IMG/VR virus record: IMGVR_UViG_3300050821_003907
Location: 1-64,000 of that record
Reading direction: 5' to 3' (one strand)
Source of the DNA: a virus
DNA length: 64,000 nt
The notes under the pieces are model-generated. The model was not told the DNA's origin. It did not search any database and saw only the letters and a program-made list of their open reading frames with translations. Positions 5,315-14,163 of the stretch are shown in pieces. The translations under genes and the position numbers were made by a program. Within the stretch, counting starts at the first letter, position 1; each line of letters begins with the position of its first letter.

Positions 5315-6502
5315 ATGCCGCAGCAGTACGGGAAGAACCGGTTGCTCTACTGGGCAACAGACATCGAAGGTGACACGCTTGAGCAGGCTGCTCGCGCGTC
5401 CCGCTTGCCATTCGTGGAGAGTCACGTTGCCCTGATGCCTGACGCTCACGTCGGCATGGGCGCTACCGTTGGCTCGGTCATCCCCACCAAGGGCGCAATC
5501 ATTCCTGCTGCGGTAGGCGTGGACATCGGGTGCGGGATGATTGCCACCGAGACAGGTTACACGGCGCATGACCTGCCGGATGACCTTAGCCCGCTGATGT
5601 CGCTGATTGAGCAGCGAATCCCGGCAGGTGTAGGCGCGGGACACGGCACTAACGACAACGTTGACCTGAACCTGTTTCCTGGATGGGGTCCGCTGGGCCT
5701 CACGTCGGCTCAGGAGCACACGCTTTGCTCTCAGTTCGGGTCGCTAGGCTCGGGAAACCACTTCGTTGAGGTGGGACTTGACCCTAACGGGTTCGTGTGG
5801 ACGGTACTTCACTCCGGAAGTCGTGGCATTGGCAACCAGCTAGCCAGTGGCCACATCAAGAAGGCAAAGGGGCTGATGAAGCAACTTTCAGTTAGCCTCG
5901 AAGACCCTGACCTGGCGTACTTCCTTGAAGGTACACCTGAGTTCCAGGAATATATGCGAGACCTTCTATGGGCACAGAATTACGCTTACGGTAACCGTCA
6001 GGCGATGAACCAAGCCCTGCTGAAGTCCTTGTTCGAAGTTGTAGGCATGCCTGCGGTGTGGGAAACCATTGACGACGGCATCGTTGAAGTCATCAACTGC
6101 CATCACAACTACACTGCGCGGGAAACTCACAACGGCAAGGAACTGTGGATTACCCGCAAGGGCGCAATTCGGGCTGACGTAAATGACCTGGGCGTCGTTC
6201 CTGGCTCCATGGGCACGAGCACGTTCATCACCCGTGGCCTGGGCAACCCGGAGTCTTTCAATAGCAGCTCTCACGGAGCGGGCCGCAAGATGAGCCGTTC
6301 CAGGGCTAAGCGTGAGCTTGACCGCGCTGCGTTCACCGAGCACATGTCTCGCGCGGGAATAACCTGGAATGCTGAACGCGTTGATGCGCTCATAGATGAG
6401 GCTCCTCTGGCGTACAAGGATATTCATAATGTGATGGCCGACCAGGCTGACTTGTGCGAGGTAGTCACAGAGATTAGCCAGGTTTTCAATTACAAGGGGT
6501 AG
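5315..6502 (+). CDS. rtcB: RtcB-family RNA ligase
   Basis: MPDAHVG, VGVDIGCG, GSLGSGNHF, LHSGSRG, HHNY, TRKGA, PGSMG, SHGAGR, DEAPLAYKDI motifs. Confidence 0.95.
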   Translation: MPQQYGKNRLLYWATDIEGDTLEQAARASRLPFVESHVALMPDAHVGMGATVGSVIPTKGAIIPAAVGVDIGCGMIATETGYTAHDLPDDLSPLMSLIEQRIPAGVGAGHGTNDNVDLNLFPGWGPLGLTSAQEHTLCSQFGSLGSGNHFVEVGLDPNGFVWTVLHSGSRGIGNQLASGHIKKAKGLMKQLSVSLEDPDLAYFLEGTPEFQEYMRDLLWAQNYAYGNRQAMNQALLKSLFEVVGMPAVWETIDDGIVEVINCHHNYTARETHNGKELWITRKGAIRADVNDLGVVPGSMGTSTFITRGLGNPESFNSSSHGAGRKMSRSRAKRELDRAAFTEHMSRAGITWNAERVDALIDEAPLAYKDIHNVMADQADLCEVVTEISQVFNYKG

Positions 6503-7399: not shown

Positions 7400-8166
7400 G
7401 GATTCAGGGTGTACTTCTGGTAGAGGAACGTCAGCGTATGACCTTGCGTGCCGTGTACTTCAGACCCGAATTGCACACCGTAGAGCCGTGCGCTAGGTGG
7501 AACCGTTTCAGACGTGCGATGGTCCTTCTGAAGTGCGTGGAGCAAGTCAGCTACGTGAATAGTTCCCGAAGTACTGTTTTTTGGCAGTACAAGGTCCACG
7601 CGGCGGCAGCCAAGGCAGCCAAACAGGTTCCACTTCTGGCCGTCAACGGTGATGGTTCCCTCGGCAGCGCTACCGGTACTTTGCCCGTGCGTGTACACCC
7701 AGAACATGACTTCATTAGAGCCATTAGCGACTTCACCGTTGATGCCGATGTCGTAGGCTACATTCCACTGCCCGTAATTGCTGGGAACGCTGACGTTGTA
7801 AGTGCTGATAAGGGTTTTGACAGAGCTAACTGCTTCTCCGTTATAGTCCTTTTCCTCGTTAGCGTAAGGCCAGCCACCGTAAGGGTCAGAATTAGCACAA
7901 AAGCCCCACTCACCTTTAGTGGTAGTAGTGAACATGGTGAACTTATCGGAACTGTCAGTGCCCCACTGATTGGCGTTGAGGGCGTACGTGCTTCCGTCAG
8001 TTCCAGTGAACGACCGGGAAGTCCACGAGCCGGTGGACGACCAGTTAGTCCCGTTAGGCGGGCACTTCTGGTTAGGCGCAGTAGAGGCCATTGCCGCAGA
8101 AGCGGGAAGCATGAACAGTCCGGCCGCGAGGACGGCCATTATCGCGAATATCTTGTACAGAATCAT
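7396..8166 (-). CDS. Secreted glycoside hydrolase family 12 (endoglucanase/xyloglucanase-like)
   Basis: Signal peptide; NANQWG, WNVAYDI, NEVMFWV and GVQFGSE motifs with both catalytic Glu; start reassigned to ATG 8166. Confidence 0.8.
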   Translation of the reverse strand: MILYKIFAIMAVLAAGLFMLPASAAMASTAPNQKCPPNGTNWSSTGSWTSRSFTGTDGSTYALNANQWGTDSSDKFTMFTTTTKGEWGFCANSDPYGGWPYANEEKDYNGEAVSSVKTLISTYNVSVPSNYGQWNVAYDIGINGEVANGSNEVMFWVYTHGQSTGSAAEGTITVDGQKWNLFGCLGCRRVDLVLPKNSTSGTIHVADLLHALQKDHRTSETVPPSARLYGVQFGSEVHGTQGHTLTFLYQKYTLNP

Positions 8167-8217: not shown

Positions 8218-8787
8218 ATGACGACGTGGAAATTCTGGAAGCGGCCTGACTGGCCTGAGTACTTTCTCGACATGGCTGAGACTGTCAGCGAGAGAGCAGA
8301 CTGCACGCGCCGCAACGTCGGCGCTGTCATCGCCAAGGACAACCGCATTGTCGCGACGGGCTACAACGGAGCGCCCTCCGGTGAAGGTTCTTGCCTTGAG
8401 GGAGACTGCCCGCGCGGAAAGCATTACAAGGTCTCCTACACAAATCACCATGACTTTGATTCAGTAGGGTGCGGTACATGCGGAAACCTAGGCTGGCCAT
8501 GCAATGCTTCGGTGGAACCGGGTTCTAGCTATGACACAGGCGCAGGGTCGTGCATTGCCGTTCATGCTGAACTTAACGCGCTCTTGTATGCCGACCGTGA
8601 TAAGTGCGAAGGTGCATCGATTTACGTTACGGCTGTCGCCGCTGACATTCGTGATGGCAAGAGGTACAACAACCGCCGTGTCAGTGGCGAGCCGTGTGGT
8701 GGCTGCATGAGGGCCATCAAGGGAGCGGGAATAGCTCACGCGGTGTGGACGTTGGACTATGACAAGACCGGCACGTGGGATAGGTAG
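8218..8787 (+). CDS. dCMP/cytidine deaminase
   Basis: RRNVGAVI, ATGYNG, HAELNAL and PCGGC zinc motifs. Confidence 0.9.
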   Translation: MTTWKFWKRPDWPEYFLDMAETVSERADCTRRNVGAVIAKDNRIVATGYNGAPSGEGSCLEGDCPRGKHYKVSYTNHHDFDSVGCGTCGNLGWPCNASVEPGSSYDTGAGSCIAVHAELNALLYADRDKCEGASIYVTAVAADIRDGKRYNNRRVSGEPCGGCMRAIKGAGIAHAVWTLDYDKTGTWDR

Positions 8788-9331: not shown

Positions 9332-9402
9332 AGGTCACTGGTGTACCGGAAGCACACGAGGCTCCAACCCTCTTAGACAGAGTTCGACTCTCTGGTGGCC
9401 TG
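9332..9402 (+). tRNA. tRNA-Trp(CCA)
   Basis: AGGTCAC/GTGGCCT acceptor; loop CTCCAAC; TTCGA T-loop. Confidence 0.85.
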
Positions 9403-9428
9403 CACGGACTTCGCTACGGCGAGTGTCC

Positions 9429-9451
9429 TGTTATTTGACAACTCAACAGTG
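9429..9451 (+). promoter_or_regulatory. rrn-leader boxA-like antitermination element
   Basis: TGTTATTTGACAACTCAACAGTG resembles actinobacterial rrn leader TGTTGTTTGAGAACTCAA. Confidence 0.6.
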
Positions 9452-9538
9452 ATAAGCAAGATGACCTGAGCAGGGACGTGTGCCTAGAATCCCGGCTTCC
9501 GGGAATAGCTAGACATATTTCTTTGTTCAGGTCACCAT

Positions 9539-9613
9539 GGGCCATTAGCTCCAATTTGGTAGAGCAACACCTTTGCACGGTGAAGGTTGTCGGTTCGAAT
9601 CCGACATGGTCCA
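9539..9613 (+). tRNA. tRNA-Ala(TGC)
   Basis: G3.U70 acceptor pair; loop TTTGCAC. Confidence 0.9.
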
Positions 9614-9795
9614 CTTGCCAGGAGGCGCAAGTTCGAATCTTGCCTGGGTGACGGTGAAGCGTATGAGAGTGCGTGGAGTTGCCCGGTGTTGTATGGAGGG
9701 AGCATACCTGGCCATAGGTCACGGAGGTCGCCGTTTGAATCGGCACTCGCCCCAACAGGGGCAGGATGGTGTAGAACGACTAGCACACCGTGCTT
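9614..9795 (+). pseudogene. Degenerate tRNA fragments (isolated T-arms and a 5' half)
   Basis: GCAAG-TTCGAAT-CTTGC and GCCG-TTTGAAT-CGGC T-arms; TGGTGTAGAACGACTAGCAC D-arm; no complete cloverleaf found. Confidence 0.5.
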
Positions 9796-9798
9796 TAT

Positions 9799-9873
9799 CA
9801 GGTTGTAGCTCAGCTTGGACAGAGTGCTCCCCCCGGACGGGAGAAGTCGAAGGTTCGAATCCTTCCAGCCTGA
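9799..9873 (+). tRNA. tRNA-Pro(CGG), atypical loop C33/A37
   Basis: CAGGTTG/CAGCCTG; CTCCC-CCCGGAC-GGGAG. Confidence 0.8.
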
Positions 9874-9892
9874 CTAGCTCAGTGATGAGCGA

Positions 9893-9934
9893 ATTGTCGT
9901 GATTTCCGAGGCAATCAAAATAAATCGGGCTCCA
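9893..9934 (+). ncRNA. 42 nt putative pseudoknot, copy 1
   Basis: Near-identical to 10073-10114 with compensatory stem changes. Confidence 0.6.
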
Positions 9935-10009
9935 CAGGGTGTAGCGCAGCTTGGTTAGCGTGCCTGCTCGGGATGCAGGAGGTCGTGGGTTCGAATCCCA
10001 CCACTCTGA
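9935..10009 (+). tRNA. tRNA-Pro(GGG), atypical loop C33/A37
   Basis: CAGGGTG/CACTCTG; CCTGC-TCGGGAT-GCAGG. Confidence 0.8.
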
Positions 10010-10072
10010 CGCAAACAAGAAACCTCGGTTCAATTCCGGGCTTGTAGTTCAGTGGAAGAACGCTTGTGACGT

Positions 10073-10114
10073 GTTGTTGTGATTTCCGAGACAACCAAAA
10101 TAAATCGGACTCCA
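10073..10114 (+). ncRNA. 42 nt putative pseudoknot, copy 2
   Basis: See copy 1. Confidence 0.6.
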
Positions 10115-10189
10115 CGGGATATAGCTCAGCTTGGTCAGAGCGCCTGGTTTGGGGCCAGGAAGTCGAGTGTTCGAATCACTCTATCCCGA
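10115..10189 (+). tRNA. tRNA-Pro(TGG)
   Basis: CCTGG-TTTGGGG-CCAGG. Confidence 0.9.
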
Positions 10190-10277
10190 CGCGGAGAACT
10201 GCGTGGTGTACGTTACTAGGACATGGGGGCCTAGGGCGTCAGTAGCTGGCTTTGGCCTGATAAGCACCACACATTAT

Positions 10278-10349
10278 GGCTCTCTAGCTCATACGGTAGA
10301 GCACTCGGTTGAAGCCCGAGATAAAGAGGTTCAAGTCCTCTGGGAGCCA
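10278..10349 (+). tRNA. tRNA-Phe(GAA)
   Basis: CTCGG-TTGAAGC-CCGAG (G37). Confidence 0.9.
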
Positions 10350-10443
10350 CGCGGCCGAAGTACAAGGCTGAAAACGCGGGACAACGGTTCTCTAGTCTTT
10401 CGCCCGCTCGGTAGACCTCATGCCCTACTGATTAGATGACAAT

Positions 10444-10515
10444 GCGAGTGTTGGTTAATGGTTAAACTCCCACTCTTCCAAAGTGGCACTGCGGGTTCGA
10501 ATCCCGTCACTCGCT
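10444..10515 (+). tRNA. tRNA-Gly(TCC)
   Basis: CCACT-CTTCCAA-AGTGG; U73. Confidence 0.9.
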
Positions 10516-10519
10516 CTTT

Positions 10520-10591
10520 GCCCCGTTAGCATAACGGTAGTGCAGCTGGCTCTTACCCAGCGTTGTCAGGGTTCGAATCCCTGGCGGGGTA
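10520..10591 (+). tRNA. tRNA-Lys(CTT)
   Basis: GCTGG-CTCTTAC-CCAGC. Confidence 0.9.
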
Positions 10592-10607
10592 CTGCTAAAC
10601 TGTAGTC

Positions 10608-10808
10608 ATGAAGAAACTCTTTGTAGCCATATTCACGATTGCAGCGATAGCGTTGGGCAGCAGTTCAGCCCTAGCCTCACAGTCTCACCCGGCTCCGAAC
10701 ACTTCCTGTTCGCGACTCGGTACAAGGGCTGTGTATCACAGTTACTGGTTCTTGCGTTGCGAGCGTTACCACAGTCAGACTATCTGGAGGATTGTGGGAC
10801 ACTTTTAA
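10608..10808 (+). CDS. Small secreted protein inside the tRNA array
   Basis: MKK + hydrophobic signal peptide + ALA site; TAAACT-N6-ATG. Confidence 0.7.
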   Translation: MKKLFVAIFTIAAIALGSSSALASQSHPAPNTSCSRLGTRAVYHSYWFLRCERYHSQTIWRIVGHF

Positions 10809-10815
10809 AAGGTTT

Positions 10816-10890
10816 GCCCGACTAGGCCAATTGGGTAGAGTCGCCGGTCTCAAAAATCGGATGTTCGGGGTTCGAGTCCCCGGTCGGGCA
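10816..10890 (+). tRNA. tRNA-Leu(CAA), short variable loop
   Basis: CCGGT-CTCAAAA-ATCGG; A73. Confidence 0.85.
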
Positions 10891-10891
10891 C

Positions 10892-10968
10892 TGCGGGTTG
10901 GAGAAGCTAGGTATCTCGCCAGGCCCATAATCTGGAGAACCCCGGTTCAAATCCGGGACCCGCCCCCA
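10892..10968 (+). tRNA. tRNA-Met(CAT), initiator-like
   Basis: U1:C72 mismatch; loop CCCATAA; encoded CCA. Confidence 0.8.
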
Positions 10969-10971
10969 CTT

Positions 10972-11042
10972 GCCTGGGTAGTTCAATGGGAGAACACTGG
11001 TCTCATAAGCCAGACACGAGGGTTCGATTCCCTCCCTAGGTA
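10972..11042 (+). tRNA. tRNA-Met(CAT) elongator (Ile2 not excluded)
   Basis: CTGGT-CTCATAA-GCCAG. Confidence 0.8.
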
Positions 11043-11078
11043 CTGGTACACTTAGGTGTACCCGCGCGAAAGCGCTAA

Positions 11079-11150
11079 TCCTCAATAACTCAACGGCAGA
11101 GTGTCCGCCTGTTAAGCGGAGAGTTGCTGGTTCGAATCCAGCTTGAGGAG
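11079..11150 (+). tRNA. tRNA-Asn(GTT)
   Basis: TCCGC-CTGTTAA-GCGGA; G73. Confidence 0.9.
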
Positions 11151-11169
11151 CTTCCTCGCAAGAGGATAT

Positions 11170-11244
11170 GGCTCTATAGCTCAACTTGGTCAGAGCACCG
11201 TCCTGTCACGACGGAGGTTACGGGTTCAAATCCCGTTAGGGTCG
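11170..11244 (+). tRNA. tRNA-Asp(GTC)
   Basis: CCGTC-CTGTCAC-GACGG; G73. Confidence 0.9.
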
Positions 11245-11245
11245 C

Positions 11246-11319
11246 GCACCAGTAGCACAACGGAATAATGCACTTGACTACGAATCAAGAGACTGGGGGT
11301 TCGAATCCCTCCTGGTGTA
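11246..11319 (+). tRNA. tRNA-Arg(ACG)
   Basis: CTTGA-CTACGAA-TCAAG. Confidence 0.9.
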
Positions 11320-11338
11320 CTGCGCAGAAATGCGCTAA

Positions 11339-11410
11339 GCCCACTTAGCTCAGCGGAAGAGCGGCTGGCCTACACCCAGCGGGTCGGGAGTTCAAATCTC
11401 TCAGTGGGTA
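11339..11410 (+). tRNA. tRNA-Val(TAC), C33
   Basis: GCTGG-CCTACAC-CCAGC. Confidence 0.85.
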
Positions 11411-11411
11411 C

Positions 11412-11487
11412 GGTGACCGTGGTGTAATGGTTAACACGCTAGTTTGTGAAACTAGCCATCTGGGTTCAATTCCCAGCGGTCACACCA
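11412..11487 (+). tRNA. tRNA-His(GTG), G-1 opposite A73
   Basis: CTAGT-TTGTGAA-ACTAG; encoded CCA. Confidence 0.9.
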
Positions 11488-11488
11488 T

Positions 11489-11566
11489 GCCGGATACCAC
11501 GTGGAGTGGAAGCAGTCTGTAAAACTGTTGCCTTTGGCACCGGGGGTTCGATTCCCTCATCCGGCA
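11489..11566 (+). tRNA. tRNA-Tyr(GTA)
   Basis: GCAGT-CTGTAAA-ACTGT; variable arm TGCC-TTT-GGCA; short D-arm. Confidence 0.85.
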
Positions 11567-11583
11567 CTGCGCGAAAGCGCTAT

Positions 11584-11654
11584 TCCGGGGTCGTCTAACG
11601 GCAGGACGATAGGCTCTGAACCTGTTAATTGGAGTTCGAATCTCTGCCCCGGAG
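11584..11654 (+). tRNA. tRNA-Gln(CTG)
   Basis: ATAGG-CTCTGAA-CCTGT; U1-A72, G73. Confidence 0.9.
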
Positions 11655-11658
11655 CTTT

Positions 11659-11726
11659 GCCTCATGTACTGGGTACACAGCCCCTTCGTACGGGGATGTC
11701 GCGGAGTTCAATCCTCCGATGAGGCT
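11659..11726 (+). tRNA. tRNA-Thr(CGT), reduced D-arm
   Basis: GCCTCAT/ATGAGGC; CCCC-TTCGTAC-GGGG. Confidence 0.75.
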
Positions 11727-11745
11727 CTGTTCCGAAAGGAACTAT

Positions 11746-11830
11746 GCGCGGATGGTGAAATGGCAGACACGCTGGAATGAGAGTCCAGTGACTCGGAAGA
11801 GTCGTGAGGGTTCAAGTCCCTCTTCGCGCA
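11746..11830 (+). tRNA. tRNA-Leu(GAG), long variable arm
   Basis: CTGGA-ATGAGAG-TCCAG; GACTC-GGAA-GAGTC. Confidence 0.9.
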
Positions 11831-11894
11831 CGAATGCCGGGTAGGGTACGTTCCGACTTAAGCGGTAAGCGTCCGGTGAAGAAAACCCAGAAAT

Positions 11895-11966
11895 GCCTCG
11901 TTAGCTCAGTGGAAGAGCAGTGCCCTTGTAAGGCGAAGGTCGCGGGTTCAAATCCTGCACGAGGCT
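11895..11966 (+). tRNA. tRNA-Thr(TGT)
   Basis: Loop CTTGTAA. Confidence 0.9.
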
Positions 11967-11979
11967 CGTAGTACATTAA

Positions 11980-12050
11980 TGCGGTATCGTCTAACGGCAG
12001 GACGACGGGTTTTGGTCCCGTCTATCGAGGTTCGAATCCTTGTACCGCAG
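11980..12050 (+). tRNA. tRNA-Gln(TTG)
   Basis: ACGGG-TTTTGGT-CCCGT. Confidence 0.9.
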
Positions 12051-12126
12051 CGATGGTGGTTTCCCGATAGGGAACGTAAGATGGGGAGTGCCTTATTAGG
12101 TGCCACTGAGAAAAGCTCCCCGTTAT

Positions 12127-12199
12127 GCCTATATAGCTCCAATGGCAGAGCAGTTCCATGGTAAGGAACAGGTTTCCGGTTCGAGTCCGGATATAGGCT
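12127..12199 (+). tRNA. tRNA-Thr(GGT)
   Basis: GTTCC-ATGGTAA-GGAAC. Confidence 0.9.
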
Positions 12200-12218
12200 C
12201 TGAGATGAAAGTCTCTGT

Positions 12219-12290
12219 GTGGATGTGGCGCAACGGTAGCGTATCACCTTGCCAAGGTGATGGTTGCGGGTTCGAATCCCGTCATCCACT
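12219..12290 (+). tRNA. tRNA-Gly(GCC)
   Basis: TCACC-TTGCCAA-GGTGA. Confidence 0.9.
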
Positions 12291-12374
12291 CTCGGAGTCC
12301 AGGAGAAGGTGCCTAGGTCTGACACTTCAGTCAGGCGGGGCTGGATTAAGCGAAAGCCTGATAACCCTTCTTAT

Positions 12375-12449
12375 GCCGCTCTAGTCCAATTAGGTAGAGG
12401 CGCTGGCCTCAGAAGCCAGATGTTCGGGGTTCGAATCCCCGGAGCGGCA
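12375..12449 (+). tRNA. tRNA-Leu(CAG), short variable loop
   Basis: CTGGC-CTCAGAA-GCCAG. Confidence 0.85.
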
Positions 12450-12535
12450 CGGTCTGTGGAAGTCCCGGTTTAGGCGTCCGGGTGGCGATTGCCGTCATAG
12501 GATAAAGCTTTTAAGTCCGTCACAGAAACCCCCTT

Positions 12536-12620
12536 GGAAGATTAACCAGATAGGTTCTGGGCCTCGCTGCTAACGAGTGCGGTGTCGAGAGGCACTGGGA
12601 TTCGAGTTCTCAATCTTCCG
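12536..12620 (+). tRNA. tRNA-Ser(GCT)
   Basis: CTCG-CTGCTAA-CGAG; long arm; G73. Confidence 0.85.
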
Positions 12621-12624
12621 CTTT

Positions 12625-12699
12625 GGCCGCCTAGCCCAATTTGGCAGAGGCGCAGGCTTTAGGTGCCTGAGGTTGTGGGTTCGAGTCCCATGGCGGCTA
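12625..12699 (+). tRNA. tRNA-Leu(TAG), short variable loop
   Basis: CAGGC-TTTAGGT-GCCTG. Confidence 0.85.
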
Positions 12700-12710
12700 C
12701 GCAGTAACAT

Positions 12711-12794
12711 GGAGAGTGAACCTAGCAGGGCTGGGCACTCGCTGGAAACGAGCTGGGCGTCGTAGACGCTGGGATTCGAGTTCTCCGCTCTCCG
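12711..12794 (+). tRNA. tRNA-Ser(GGA)
   Basis: CTCG-CTGGAAA-CGAG; long arm. Confidence 0.85.
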
Positions 12795-12867
12795 CTTGGG
12801 TGCACGGCTCTCAGCTCCTCTCTGACCCTACCGTGAAGCTCTGTCAGTCCAATAAACGAGAGCGCCT

Positions 12868-12951
12868 GGAAGATGAACCCGTAAGGCTACGGGCGCTGCC
12901 TCGAAAACAGATGGGCCTGAAAGGGCTGGGTTTCGAATACTCCGTCTTCCG
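12868..12951 (+). tRNA. tRNA-Ser(CGA)
   Basis: Loop CTCGAAA; long arm; GGAAGAT/GTCTTCC. Confidence 0.8.
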
Positions 12952-13024
12952 CGCTGCGATGGTCACTATCGCGTTCAGGGCACCCTGCCGTGCCGTCAGC
13001 TTGGCTGAACAAAAGCGACACCGT

Positions 13025-13105
13025 GGGAGGTTAGCCAGCGGCCTGGCAATCCGGTTTGAACCCGGATGCACCGAAAGGTGCGGGGGTCGGCACCTCAACC
13101 TTCCG
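13025..13105 (+). tRNA. tRNA-Ser(TGA), aberrant T-loop
   Basis: TCCGG-TTTGAAC-CCGGA; T-loop GTCGGCA. Confidence 0.75.
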
Positions 13106-13109
13106 CTTT

Positions 13110-13183
13110 GGCTCACAGTCCACCTGGTGGGTGGAACTACCCTGATAAGGTAGACGGGCTGGGTTCAATTCCCAGGTGAGCTA
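13110..13183 (+). tRNA. tRNA-Ile(GAT)
   Basis: CTACC-CTGATAA-GGTAG. Confidence 0.85.
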
Positions 13184-13184
13184 C

Positions 13185-13262
13185 GGGACCGTGGCCAAGT
13201 TGGTGAAGGCTCCTGTCTTATAAACAGGTAATGCGTGGGTTCAAACCCCACCGGTCCTACCA
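13185..13262 (+). tRNA. tRNA-Ile(TAT)
   Basis: CCTGT-CTTATAA-ACAGG; encoded CCA. Confidence 0.85.
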
Positions 13263-13263
13263 T

Positions 13264-13339
13264 GCCTCTCTATGTCTCAAAAGAGTAGAGCAACCGACTT
13301 TTAATCGGAGGGTTCAGGGTTCGAGTCCCTGGGGAGGCA
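13264..13339 (+). tRNA. tRNA-Lys(TTT)
   Basis: CCGA-CTTTTAA-TCGG; irregular D-arm. Confidence 0.8.
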
Positions 13340-13343
13340 CTGT

Positions 13344-13415
13344 GCGGCAGCTGACGTACTCAGACGGGAATCTTCTAAATTCCTAGGCAGGGTTAGACTC
13401 CCTGGTGCCGCGCCA
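13344..13415 (+). tRNA. tRNA-Arg(TCT), atypical
   Basis: GGAAT-CTTCTAA-ATTCC; T-loop TTAGACT; encoded CCA. Confidence 0.7.
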
Positions 13416-13428
13416 AATGTAATAGCTA

Positions 13429-13503
13429 GCCCGTATGGACAAATAGGTTAAAGTCGCTGGCCTCTCAAGCCAGAGTTTCGGGGTTCGATTCCCCGTACGG
13501 GCA
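13429..13503 (+). tRNA. tRNA-Glu(CTC)
   Basis: CTGGC-CTCTCAA-GCCAG. Confidence 0.9.
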
Positions 13504-13575
13504 CGCACCAGAGCTTGCGGGAGAGTACTCCGGGAAACCGGAAGCGCAGAAGATGCTCAGTAGACAAGCACCCAT

Positions 13576-13651
13576 GGCCCCATGGACAAATTGGTTAAAG
13601 TCACCTGCCTTTCAAGCAGGAGTTTTCAGGGTTCAAGTCCCTGTGGGGTCA
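13576..13651 (+). tRNA. tRNA-Glu(TTC)
   Basis: CCTGC-CTTTCAA-GCAGG. Confidence 0.9.
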
Positions 13652-13655
13652 CTGT

Positions 13656-13727
13656 GCTTCCGGTAGTGGACCTACCGCATTCCCTCCGAAGGAAAGCTGC
13701 TCGGTTCGATTCCGAGCGGAAGTGCCA
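13656..13727 (+). tRNA. tRNA-Arg(CCG), reduced D-arm
   Basis: TTCC-CTCCGAA-GGAA; GCTTCCG/CGGAAGT; encoded CCA. Confidence 0.75.
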
Positions 13728-13728
13728 T

Positions 13729-13800
13729 GGCAGAATGGGCAAATGGTTAAGTCACGCGGCTGCAACCCGCGAGTTTCGGGTTCGATTCCCGGTTCTGCCT
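13729..13800 (+). tRNA. tRNA-Cys(GCA)
   Basis: CGCGG-CTGCAAC-CCGCG; U73. Confidence 0.9.
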
Positions 13801-13988
13801 CTGGAGAAGCGTGGAGGCTATAGTCAGGTACTAGGGCAAGTCTCCTAAACGTGCTGGCAGGCGGAAAGCTGGGTGATGCCGAGAAGTAAGGCAGGTAAAA
13901 CTGAACCACTTCTGGCGGAGAACCGCATTCTAGCTATAGCTTAAGAACGAGGCGACGCTACGCGCCTACTCCACCTTCTCTTTAAAAT

Positions 13989-14057
13989 GCCCTCGCTGGC
14001 GGATTCAGCGCCGAGCCTCCTAAGCTTGGCTACCCGGTTCGACTCCGGGCGAGGGCA
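13989..14057 (+). tRNA. tRNA-Arg(CCT), reduced D-arm
   Basis: CGAGC-CTCCTAA-GCTTG; GCCCTCG/CGAGGGC. Confidence 0.75.
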
Positions 14058-14163
14058 CTTATTGCTTATCACTGTTGAGTTCACTTATGCGTGTGTGATA
14101 ATATTTGCGGTGAATGCTCGTTTAAGCCTTCGCAAATCCTCACGCATAGTAAGAGAGAACGTA

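Follow-up and report, generated by a model that had tools for sequence, protein, structure and literature searches.

The DNA analyzed here (the window) comprises the opening 64 kb of an uncultured virus record that is 181 kb long, 98% complete, and about 55% G+C; the sequencing runs that contain the window sequence are soil metagenomes. Upstream of a long tRNA array lie the genes for an RtcB RNA ligase and a dCMP deaminase (Table 1). The closest cellular RtcB proteins, at about 62% identity, belong to Streptosporangiales actinomycetes (Trebonia, Streptosporangium, Nonomuraea, and Microbispora), which provides a lead to the host. No Ro60 (TROVE domain), CCA-adding enzyme, or RNase P RNA was found in the phage genome, and a phage without its own copies of these must depend on the enzymes of its host.

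Most tRNA genes of the array encode only the C after the discriminator base. The full CCA is encoded by five of them (Met at 10892, His, Ile-tat, Arg-tct, and Arg-ccg), and in these cases one U follows and then the next tRNA. Since the CCA-encoding tRNAs adjoin the next tRNA in this way, "CCA, then tRNA" can be taken as the layout that this array uses for CCA-ended RNAs. A long and very stable hairpin at 9462-9534 (-42.9 kcal/mol, z = -6.7) sits just before tRNA-Ala and is followed by ACCA-U and then the tRNA, the layout seen after the CCA-encoding tRNAs. Structured leaders are the rule in the array, and GNRA-loop hairpins are found 3 to 4 nt upstream of tRNA-Asn, Asp, Val, Gln(ctg), Leu(gag), and Gly(gcc) (window 11064-12218). 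The tRNA-Pro region, judging from its sequences, has clearly been rearranged between related phages; tRNA-Pro(cgg) (window 9799-9874) shares its acceptor, D, and T arms with tRNA-Pro(tgg) of a related phage (L035:12167-12242), and the anticodon arm differs.

Within this region lie two copies of a short element, W1 and W2, each of which runs directly into a tRNA-Pro gene. The earlier note had reported two 42-nt copies that end in CCA immediately before the tRNA, and both their sequences and their positions are as it described, on the plus strand: CUCCA is followed at once by the first base of tRNA-Pro(ggg) at 9935 in W1 and of tRNA-Pro(tgg) at 10115 in W2. A 30-nt core pattern, searched with up to three mismatches, has two matches in the 64-kb window, W1 and W2 themselves, where shuffled sequence leads one to expect 0.00.

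Table 1. Features of the array and of the two pseudoknot copies, in window coordinates
Feature	Position	Strand	Basis or remarks
RtcB RNA ligase gene	5315-6502		Upstream of the array; 3.4 kb upstream of the element
dCMP deaminase gene	8218-8787		Upstream of the array
tRNA array	9332-14058	+	4.7 kb; 34-39 tRNA genes (ARAGORN)
D-arm-like hairpin (GCUC AGUGAU GAGC)	9875-9892	+	Spans the gap between tRNA-Pro(cgg) and W1; accessory, outside the conserved core
W1, pseudoknot copy	9893-9934	+	Sequence, pattern match, pair counts and covariation, covariance model R1 (67 bits)
W1 S1	9893-9898 with 9910-9915	+	
W1 L1 (GUGAUU)	9899-9904	+	
W1 S2	9905-9909 (UCCGA) with 9925-9929 (UCGGG)	+	
W1 L3, A-rich (CAAAAUAAA)	9916-9924	+	
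W1 single-stranded tail (CUCCA)	9930-9934	+	
tRNA-Pro(ggg)	9935-10010	+	ARAGORN and Rfam tRNA (60.6 bits); +1 base is C, directly after W1
Compact tRNA-elbow/YrlA-like module upstream of W2	10015-10067	+	Weak partial YrlA match, 21.9 bits
Module, possible closing stem	ACAAG 10015-10019 with CUUGU 10063-10067	+	
Module, T-arm	10024-10040	+	
Module, D-arm with GG loop	10047-10061	+	
W2, pseudoknot copy	10073-10114	+	Sequence, pattern match, pair counts and covariation, covariance model R1 (67.6 bits)
W2 S1	10073-10078 with 10090-10095	+	
W2 L1	10079-10084	+	
W2 S2	10085-10089 (UCCGA) with 10105-10109 (UCGGA)	+	
W2 L3	10096-10104	+	
W2 tail (CUCCA)	10110-10114	+	
tRNA-Pro(tgg)	10115-10190	+	ARAGORN and Rfam tRNA (65.3 bits); +1 base is C, directly after W2

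The architecture is that of an H-type pseudoknot. A stem of 5 to 6 bp (S1) is capped by an 11-nt loop, and the second helix (S2) is made by the five bases at the 3′ side of that loop (UCCGR) and by YCGGR, located after an A-rich linker (L3) of 7 to 9 nt. The D-arm-like hairpin that precedes W1 is also found before W2 and before the copy in a related phage, L004, there with a compensatory change (GUUC/GAAC); it is missing at the copy in a more distant relative, L037. In the hairpins at 9875-9892 and L004:9556-9573 there is a perfect C-box-like RUGAUGA, with CUGA just upstream in the 3′ end of the preceding tRNA. This C-box-like motif is probably a coincidence.

Homologs were sought by scanning with DNA patterns (four scans of IMG/VR, one of JGI metagenomes, and one of GTDB genomes) and by searches anchored on proteins, with the dCMP deaminase, an 89-aa ORF, and RtcB as queries. 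Across the IMG/VR, JGI metagenome, and GTDB scans, genuine matches were confined to window-type and L004-type phage. The other matches (L030, L033, L039, and L040-L057) were set aside as chance; they fall in coding DNA and have no nearby tRNA, stem, or A-rich linker. One sequence, L034, is a near-identical copy of the window. L004 is a 163.5-kb genome with the same tRNA order, an RtcB 92% identical to that of the window, and a single copy of the element, located ahead of tRNA-Pro(tgg). The protein searches added two more distant relatives, L035 and L037, which share the order Trp-Ala-Pro-Pro-Pro-Phe-Gly-Lys and have RtcB proteins 77% and 82% identical, respectively; the dCMP deaminase of L037 is 59% identical. 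By these protein searches, the known clade comprises four lineages only, and the element is present in three of them, twice in the window and once each in L004 and L037.

Before the tRNA-Pro genes of L035 and L037, no copy was found. A scan for the architecture, however, revealed a fourth copy at L037 11104-11141, which begins 2 bases after tRNA-Tyr and ends flush with the +1 base of tRNA-Gln(ctg). It reads GGACU GUGAUU UCCGA GGUCC UUAAAUA UCGGG CUCCA. Because this diverged copy adjoins a tRNA-Gln gene, the element is not specific to tRNA-Pro, which corrects the picture in the earlier note, where both copies adjoin tRNA-Pro genes. The L035 contig (of which L036 is a duplicate) has no copy among its 15 tRNAs and ends inside the array, and when covariance model R1 was run on the two complete genomes and on nine other loci, it detected no further copy. 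In L037, the spacer before tRNA-Pro(tgg) (8104-8144) can also form, over its full 41 nt, a knot of the element's architecture: the stem has 5 bp, the loop 11 nt, and the A-rich linker 8 nt, and ACCC pairs with the loop sequence GGGU. The letters of this knot are unrelated to the element, it lacks a CCA, and chance alone would produce such an architecture roughly once in every 45 kb.

The four copies hardly differ in the loop GUGAUU-UCCGR and in the tail YCGGR-CUCCA, and S1 is rewritten with its pairing kept. The earlier note had argued that the stem differences between the window copies preserve pairing. Indeed, all five W1-W2 differences fall in paired positions that still pair: from W1 to W2, A-U becomes G-C, U.G becomes U-A, and C-G becomes U.G, and in the loop-tail helix U.G becomes U-A. 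The S1 strands of L037 (GGACU/GGUCC) have almost no bases in common with those of the window and still pair, and GUGAUUUCCGA and UCGGGCUCCA are letter-identical. Between W2 and L004, seven of seven differences lie in paired columns; six of these make up three two-sided changes, one of which replaces U.G by C.A. If only the three full-length copies are compared, nine columns vary, and every one of them is among the 22 paired columns (hypergeometric P = 0.0011). Counted over 11 pairs and four copies, 97.7% of the cells are standard pairs and 5 of the 11 pairs have changed on both sides; column shuffles equaled the observed pairing in only 11 to 12 of 500 cases and slid partners gave 14 to 54% paired, statistics that are modest because there are only four sequences, three of them close relatives, a number below formal covariation significance.

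The H-type pseudoknot proposed in the earlier note has homologs, four copies in three phage lineages, and both of its helices covary among them. For the loop-tail helix, two registers had been offered. In the first (UCCGA/UCGGR), an A-U pair changes to G-C in L004, a sequence that was not used to define the structure. The second (GAUUU/AAAUC) is broken in L004 by an A.C mismatch and can be dropped; its longer version, UGAUUU/AAAUCG, is broken in L004 as well. Where S1 has 6 bp, L3 measures 9 nt, and where S1 has 5 bp, L3 measures 7 nt; this shortening fits a strand that spans the S1 groove. The junction of CUCCA with the tRNA +1 base is identical in all four copies, before three different tRNA sequences. 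The distance to the upstream tRNA varies (18, 62, 18, and 2 nt for W1, W2, L004, and L037), and the 3′ junction alone is fixed. The energies of nested folds do not stand out (z = +0.2 to +0.6), since the folding program cannot see knots; S1 and S2 contribute no more than about -3.4 to -5.5 kcal/mol apiece, and in L004 a nested helix, GGAGC/GCUCC, competes with the pseudoknot. At the level of sequence comparison, the existence of the element, its conservation, the covariation of both helices, and the fixed tRNA junction are all established, and they support an H-type pseudoknot of 38 to 42 nt that appears to be under selection.

The earlier note had considered the element undescribed, and our comparisons agree. 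Rfam yielded no match to the element at the gathering score in a search of the window and none at an E value of ≤10 in searches of the array or of 251 nt; on the element itself, no HDV-like/theta, pistol, preQ1, or other Rfam family matched at E ≤10. No tRNA was called on the element or in either spacer by ARAGORN (default, lowered threshold, intron, and mitochondrial modes) or by RF00005 at E ≤10. A T-armless tRNA using the acceptor strand of the preceding tRNA can be folded for W1 and not for W2, L004, or L037. The element contains no sigma-70-like promoter and no terminator. Weak SNORD matches, which might have suggested a C/D-box RNA, are explained by the UGAUGA of the D-arm-like hairpin. 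The YrlA model (RF02553) has weak matches that cover adjoining sequence and not the pseudoknot, and the phage genome has no TROVE domain. The preQ1-I and other pseudoknot riboswitch models do not match, and the element is located between tRNA genes.

Two families deserve closer comparison. The likeness to theta ribozymes raised in the earlier note does not carry over: theta ribozymes are placed 3′ of tRNAs and adopt the HDV fold, a nested double pseudoknot; in the element there are just two helices, and the 3′ junction alone is fixed. Theta ribozymes are recognized in part by their position relative to phage tRNAs (PMC10879173), within about 5 nt after the tRNA 3′ end and with a cut at their own 5′ end, a position that the element does not share. 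Read in HDV order, its helices could be P1 and P2, with nothing at P3, L3, or P1.1, and the fold as a whole (P1, P1.1, P2, P3, an optional P4, and the catalytic C in J4/2) is absent. The tymovirus tRNA-like structure (TLS; RF00233) is a different matter. Its full L-shape, with T-arm, anticodon arm, and D region, is not found here, as the element has no anticodon arm, and at E ≤10 the RF00233 model has no match on the element, its weak matches lying only on true tRNAs. The arrangement of the acceptor arm, however, appears to be present, namely a pseudoknot with a CCA sequence at its end, and CUCCA ends four of four copies.

Some information comes from transcripts. The array is covered by contigs from two soil metatranscriptome runs; these are assembled contigs, from which RNA starts, ends, and levels are not readable, and the stretches they leave bare, for example around W1, carry no information. 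One of them is a 132-nt insert between Illumina adapters (10059-10190) in which W2 is still joined to tRNA-Pro(tgg), and its 3′ end lies one base after the discriminator of that tRNA. This is a single, weak hint of an intermediate that was processed at its 3′ end and not yet at its 5′ end, and a leader that is slow to be processed accounts for it no less well than a released RNA does.

How might such an element act? The CCA end is its most telling feature, since the CUCCA-tRNA junction is fixed. We tentatively favor, with somewhat less than even confidence and by analogy with known systems, the reading that the element is a mimic of a tRNA acceptor arm that is released from the array as a CCA-ended RNA. 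We imagine that the element is transcribed as part of the phage's long tRNA array. With zero bases between S1 and S2, the two helices could stack end to end over about 11 bp, and the invariant CUCCA would leave this stack as a single strand. Host RNase P, in cutting the tRNA 5′ end, would then leave the element with a CCA-3′OH; the fixed tRNA junction and the variable upstream distance imply that RNase P cleavage would have this outcome, and in W1, where tRNA +1 follows directly, the RNase P site would define the 3′ end. The small CCA-ended RNA might be released alone or fused to the D-arm-like or T-arm-like modules upstream. Its partners would be sought among the readers of tRNA 3′ ends, such as RNase P, the CCA-adding enzyme, a synthetase, or a CCA-targeting host toxin. 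Release, a free CCA end, and any such partner are what we infer from the arrangement of the locus.

We favor the acceptor-arm mimic because its layout matches the tymovirus acceptor arm, because such knots are RNase P substrates, and because there is a precedent in Mycobacterium smegmatis. RNase P substrates include H-type pseudoknots with a 3′ RCCA, as well as the structure of turnip yellow mosaic virus (TYMV), and the model H-type pseudoknot with 3′ RCCA is cleaved in loop 1 (PMC12710915). Compared with those model substrates, L1 of the element ends with a U next to S2 and the tail ends in CCA, but the base before CCA is U and not a purine. In M. smegmatis, an actinobacterium, RNase P cleaves the tRNA-like Y RNA YrlA, which also acquires a CCA tail (PMC4201824). 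Consistent with mimicry, YrlA-like tRNA mimics occur in the neighboring spacers of the relatives, and a compact form lies directly upstream of W2. Several observations count against it: two bases (C and U), not one, separate S2 from CCA; the stacked helix would be 10 to 11 bp and would lack a T-loop at the opposite end; the Rfam tymovirus TLS model gives the element no score; and L035 lacks a copy in its 15 visible tRNAs. A further step, in which the freed mimic serves in trans as a decoy or sponge for host defenses acting on tRNA 3′ ends, or is itself aminoacylated, we regard as improbable. Actinobacterial toxins that act on tRNA 3′ ends include the CCA-pyrophosphorylating toxSAS/CapRel-type and the CCA-extending MenT-type.

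The element might instead act in cis, as a 5′ leader whose knot tunes the rate or accuracy of RNase P on tRNAs that start with a pyrimidine, or insulates the folding of similar neighbors, with the freed leader being degraded. We consider this possible, though on the doubtful side. All four copies precede a pyrimidine at +1 (C1 of tRNA-Pro in three cases, U1 of tRNA-Gln in one), structured leaders are common in the array, with GNRA hairpins 3 to 4 nt before at least six other tRNAs, and the contig from the RNA library has W2 attached to tRNA-Pro(tgg), with a processed-looking end at 10190. The L037 spacer knot has the same architecture before tRNA-Pro(tgg), with another sequence and no CCA, and would likewise suit a leader; chance would yield this architecture only once in about 45 kb. 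Insulation or slowing, however, leaves unexplained why, in distant phages, 21 unpaired or S2 bases are invariant and CUCCA abuts the tRNA exactly while S1 varies; other pyrimidine-start tRNAs of the window (Asn, two Gln, and Pro-cgg) do without the element, and the three tRNA-Pro cases may be a single event by descent. A sequence-invariant face on a variable scaffold would also suit a recognition surface, and one can envision a phage or host protein, for example RtcB (encoded 3.4 kb upstream) or another RNA repair or processing factor, that reads the invariant L1, S2, and tail. Yet RtcB requires cleaved ends and not a knot, and neither Ro60, a CCA-adding enzyme, nor RNase P RNA was found in this phage; a protein-binding site is, in our view, decidedly improbable.

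Other readings would make less of the tRNA-like end, or read it differently. The tail does resemble a tRNA 3′ end (acceptor strand, U73, and CCA), D-arm-like and T-arm-like hairpins adjoin the element, the tRNA-Pro region has been reshuffled (with the arms of tRNA-Pro(cgg) in the window being those of tRNA-Pro(tgg) in L035), and in W1 a cloverleaf lacking the T-arm can form if the tail pairs with the preceding tRNA's 3′ strand. All of this could be expected of a functionless relic, a collapsed tRNA or Y-RNA-like gene carried along as spacers and tRNA modules are shuffled. But two helices have been kept by compensatory change, together with 21 invariant bases, while other spacers of these phages no longer align; the T-armless cloverleaf exists in W1 only, and neither ARAGORN (bacterial, intron, and mitochondrial) nor the Rfam tRNA model calls anything, so that a relic seems very unlikely. 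A conserved knot exactly at a processing site, with RtcB, a sealer of ribozyme-type ends, encoded nearby, brings to mind a small self-cleaving ribozyme whose cut, at its own 3′ end, would generate the tRNA 5′ end with no need of RNase P, and theta ribozymes provide a precedent beside phage tRNAs (PMC10879173). We give this idea little credence: no Rfam ribozyme family matches at E ≤10, there are only two helices, with P3, P1.1, and J4/2 of HDV and P2/P3 of pistol missing, and a tRNA with a 5′-OH would be unusual. To our knowledge, moreover, an element of 38 nt is below the size of the natural self-cleavers. Scarcely credible is a preQ1-I-like ligand sensor that controls tRNA maturation. The earlier note had listed ligand sensing among the possible functions, and the short stem, 11-nt loop, A-rich linker, and loop-pairing 3′ end do resemble the smallest riboswitches; nothing supports the idea, however, as no Rfam riboswitch family matches at E ≤10, the long L1 and absent L2 are the reverse of preQ1-I, and there is neither an expression platform nor a regulated ORF. 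We know of no riboswitch that sits before a tRNA.

Phage tRNA arrays are usually read as plain lists of tRNAs. The present findings indicate that some of their spacers hold knotted RNAs that appear to be selected, and that the ends of such spacer knots may be set by the tRNA-processing machinery. If the element is an acceptor-arm mimic with a real CCA end, pseudoknot acceptor mimicry, until now characteristic of plant RNA viruses, would be found in DNA phages as well, and a model of some 40 nt would be at hand for how RNase P, the CCA-adding enzyme, synthetases, and CCA-targeting toxins read their substrates. Were the decoy or aminoacylated reading true, this would be the first known tRNA-like acceptor pseudoknot outside the RNA plant viruses and a new kind of anti-defense RNA. 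A leader tuning RNase P, if that is what the element is, would offer a compact natural case in which tRNA 5′ maturation is controlled by a structured leader. The significance of any of these is limited mainly by range, as the element has so far been seen in three uncultured phage lineages only.

The motif itself fits no described family, but structured RNAs other than tRNAs are a known theme in phage tRNA arrays. The phage T4 species 1 and 2 RNAs and the 3′ETS-leuZ spacer RNA of E. coli are stable or functional RNAs that lie between tRNAs and are freed by tRNA processing; they bear no likeness to the element in sequence or structure and are larger or pair with small RNAs. The preQ1-I riboswitch (RF00522) is like the element in size, about 34 to 42 nt for both, and in build: a stem of 5 to 6 bp carries a loop of 11 nt, and beyond an A-rich linker the 3′ end pairs back to that loop. 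The riboswitch is found in the 5′ UTR of queuosine genes, whereas the element is in a tRNA array and has the loop lengths reversed. Theta (minimal HDV-like) ribozymes are, like the element, small pseudoknotted RNAs adjoining tRNA genes of uncultured phages, but they come after the tRNA, cut at their own 5′ end, and belong to gut phages, whereas the element comes before the tRNA, in soil phages with probable actinobacterial hosts (PMC10879173).

YrlA (RF02553) is likewise a non-tRNA RNA made of tRNA parts (PMC4201824), and the presence of an RtcB gene near the element recalls the bacterial rsr-yrlA-rtcBA loci. That family is defined by a Ro60-binding helix that encloses a T-arm, an acceptor-like stem-loop, and a D-arm, with the Ro60 gene close by. 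The pseudoknot matches no part of the YrlA model, and the phage has no Ro60/TROVE gene. In the spacer between tRNA-Pro(cgg) and tRNA-Pro(ggg), though, two relatives have a YrlA-like tRNA mimic that matches the tRNA-like core of the model (L004:9357-9449, 30.2 bits; L037:7847-7961, 27.1 bits; the threshold is 69), with a closing stem, a T-arm, an acceptor-like stem-loop, and a D-arm.

The valine-accepting tymovirus TLS (RF00233; TYMV) differs from the element in its setting, the 3′ end of an RNA virus genome as opposed to the tRNA array of a DNA phage, and the element has no anticodon arm and, in three of four copies, no T-arm. Its S1 (5 to 6 bp) and A-rich L3 (7 to 9 nt) compare with about 3 bp and 3 nt in the tymovirus TLS, and two bases precede its CCA, compared to one. 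In both, however, the 3′ part of the loop of an H-type knot pairs with the sequence just before the 3′ CCA, zero bases separate the helices, so that they can stack, and a D-arm-like hairpin starting with UAGCUC comes before the knot. Even the letters of S2 are nearly the same, with the Rfam tymovirus consensus running UcccGa-ggG-UCA-uCgggA-cCa and the element having UCCGA/UCGGR and then CUCCA.
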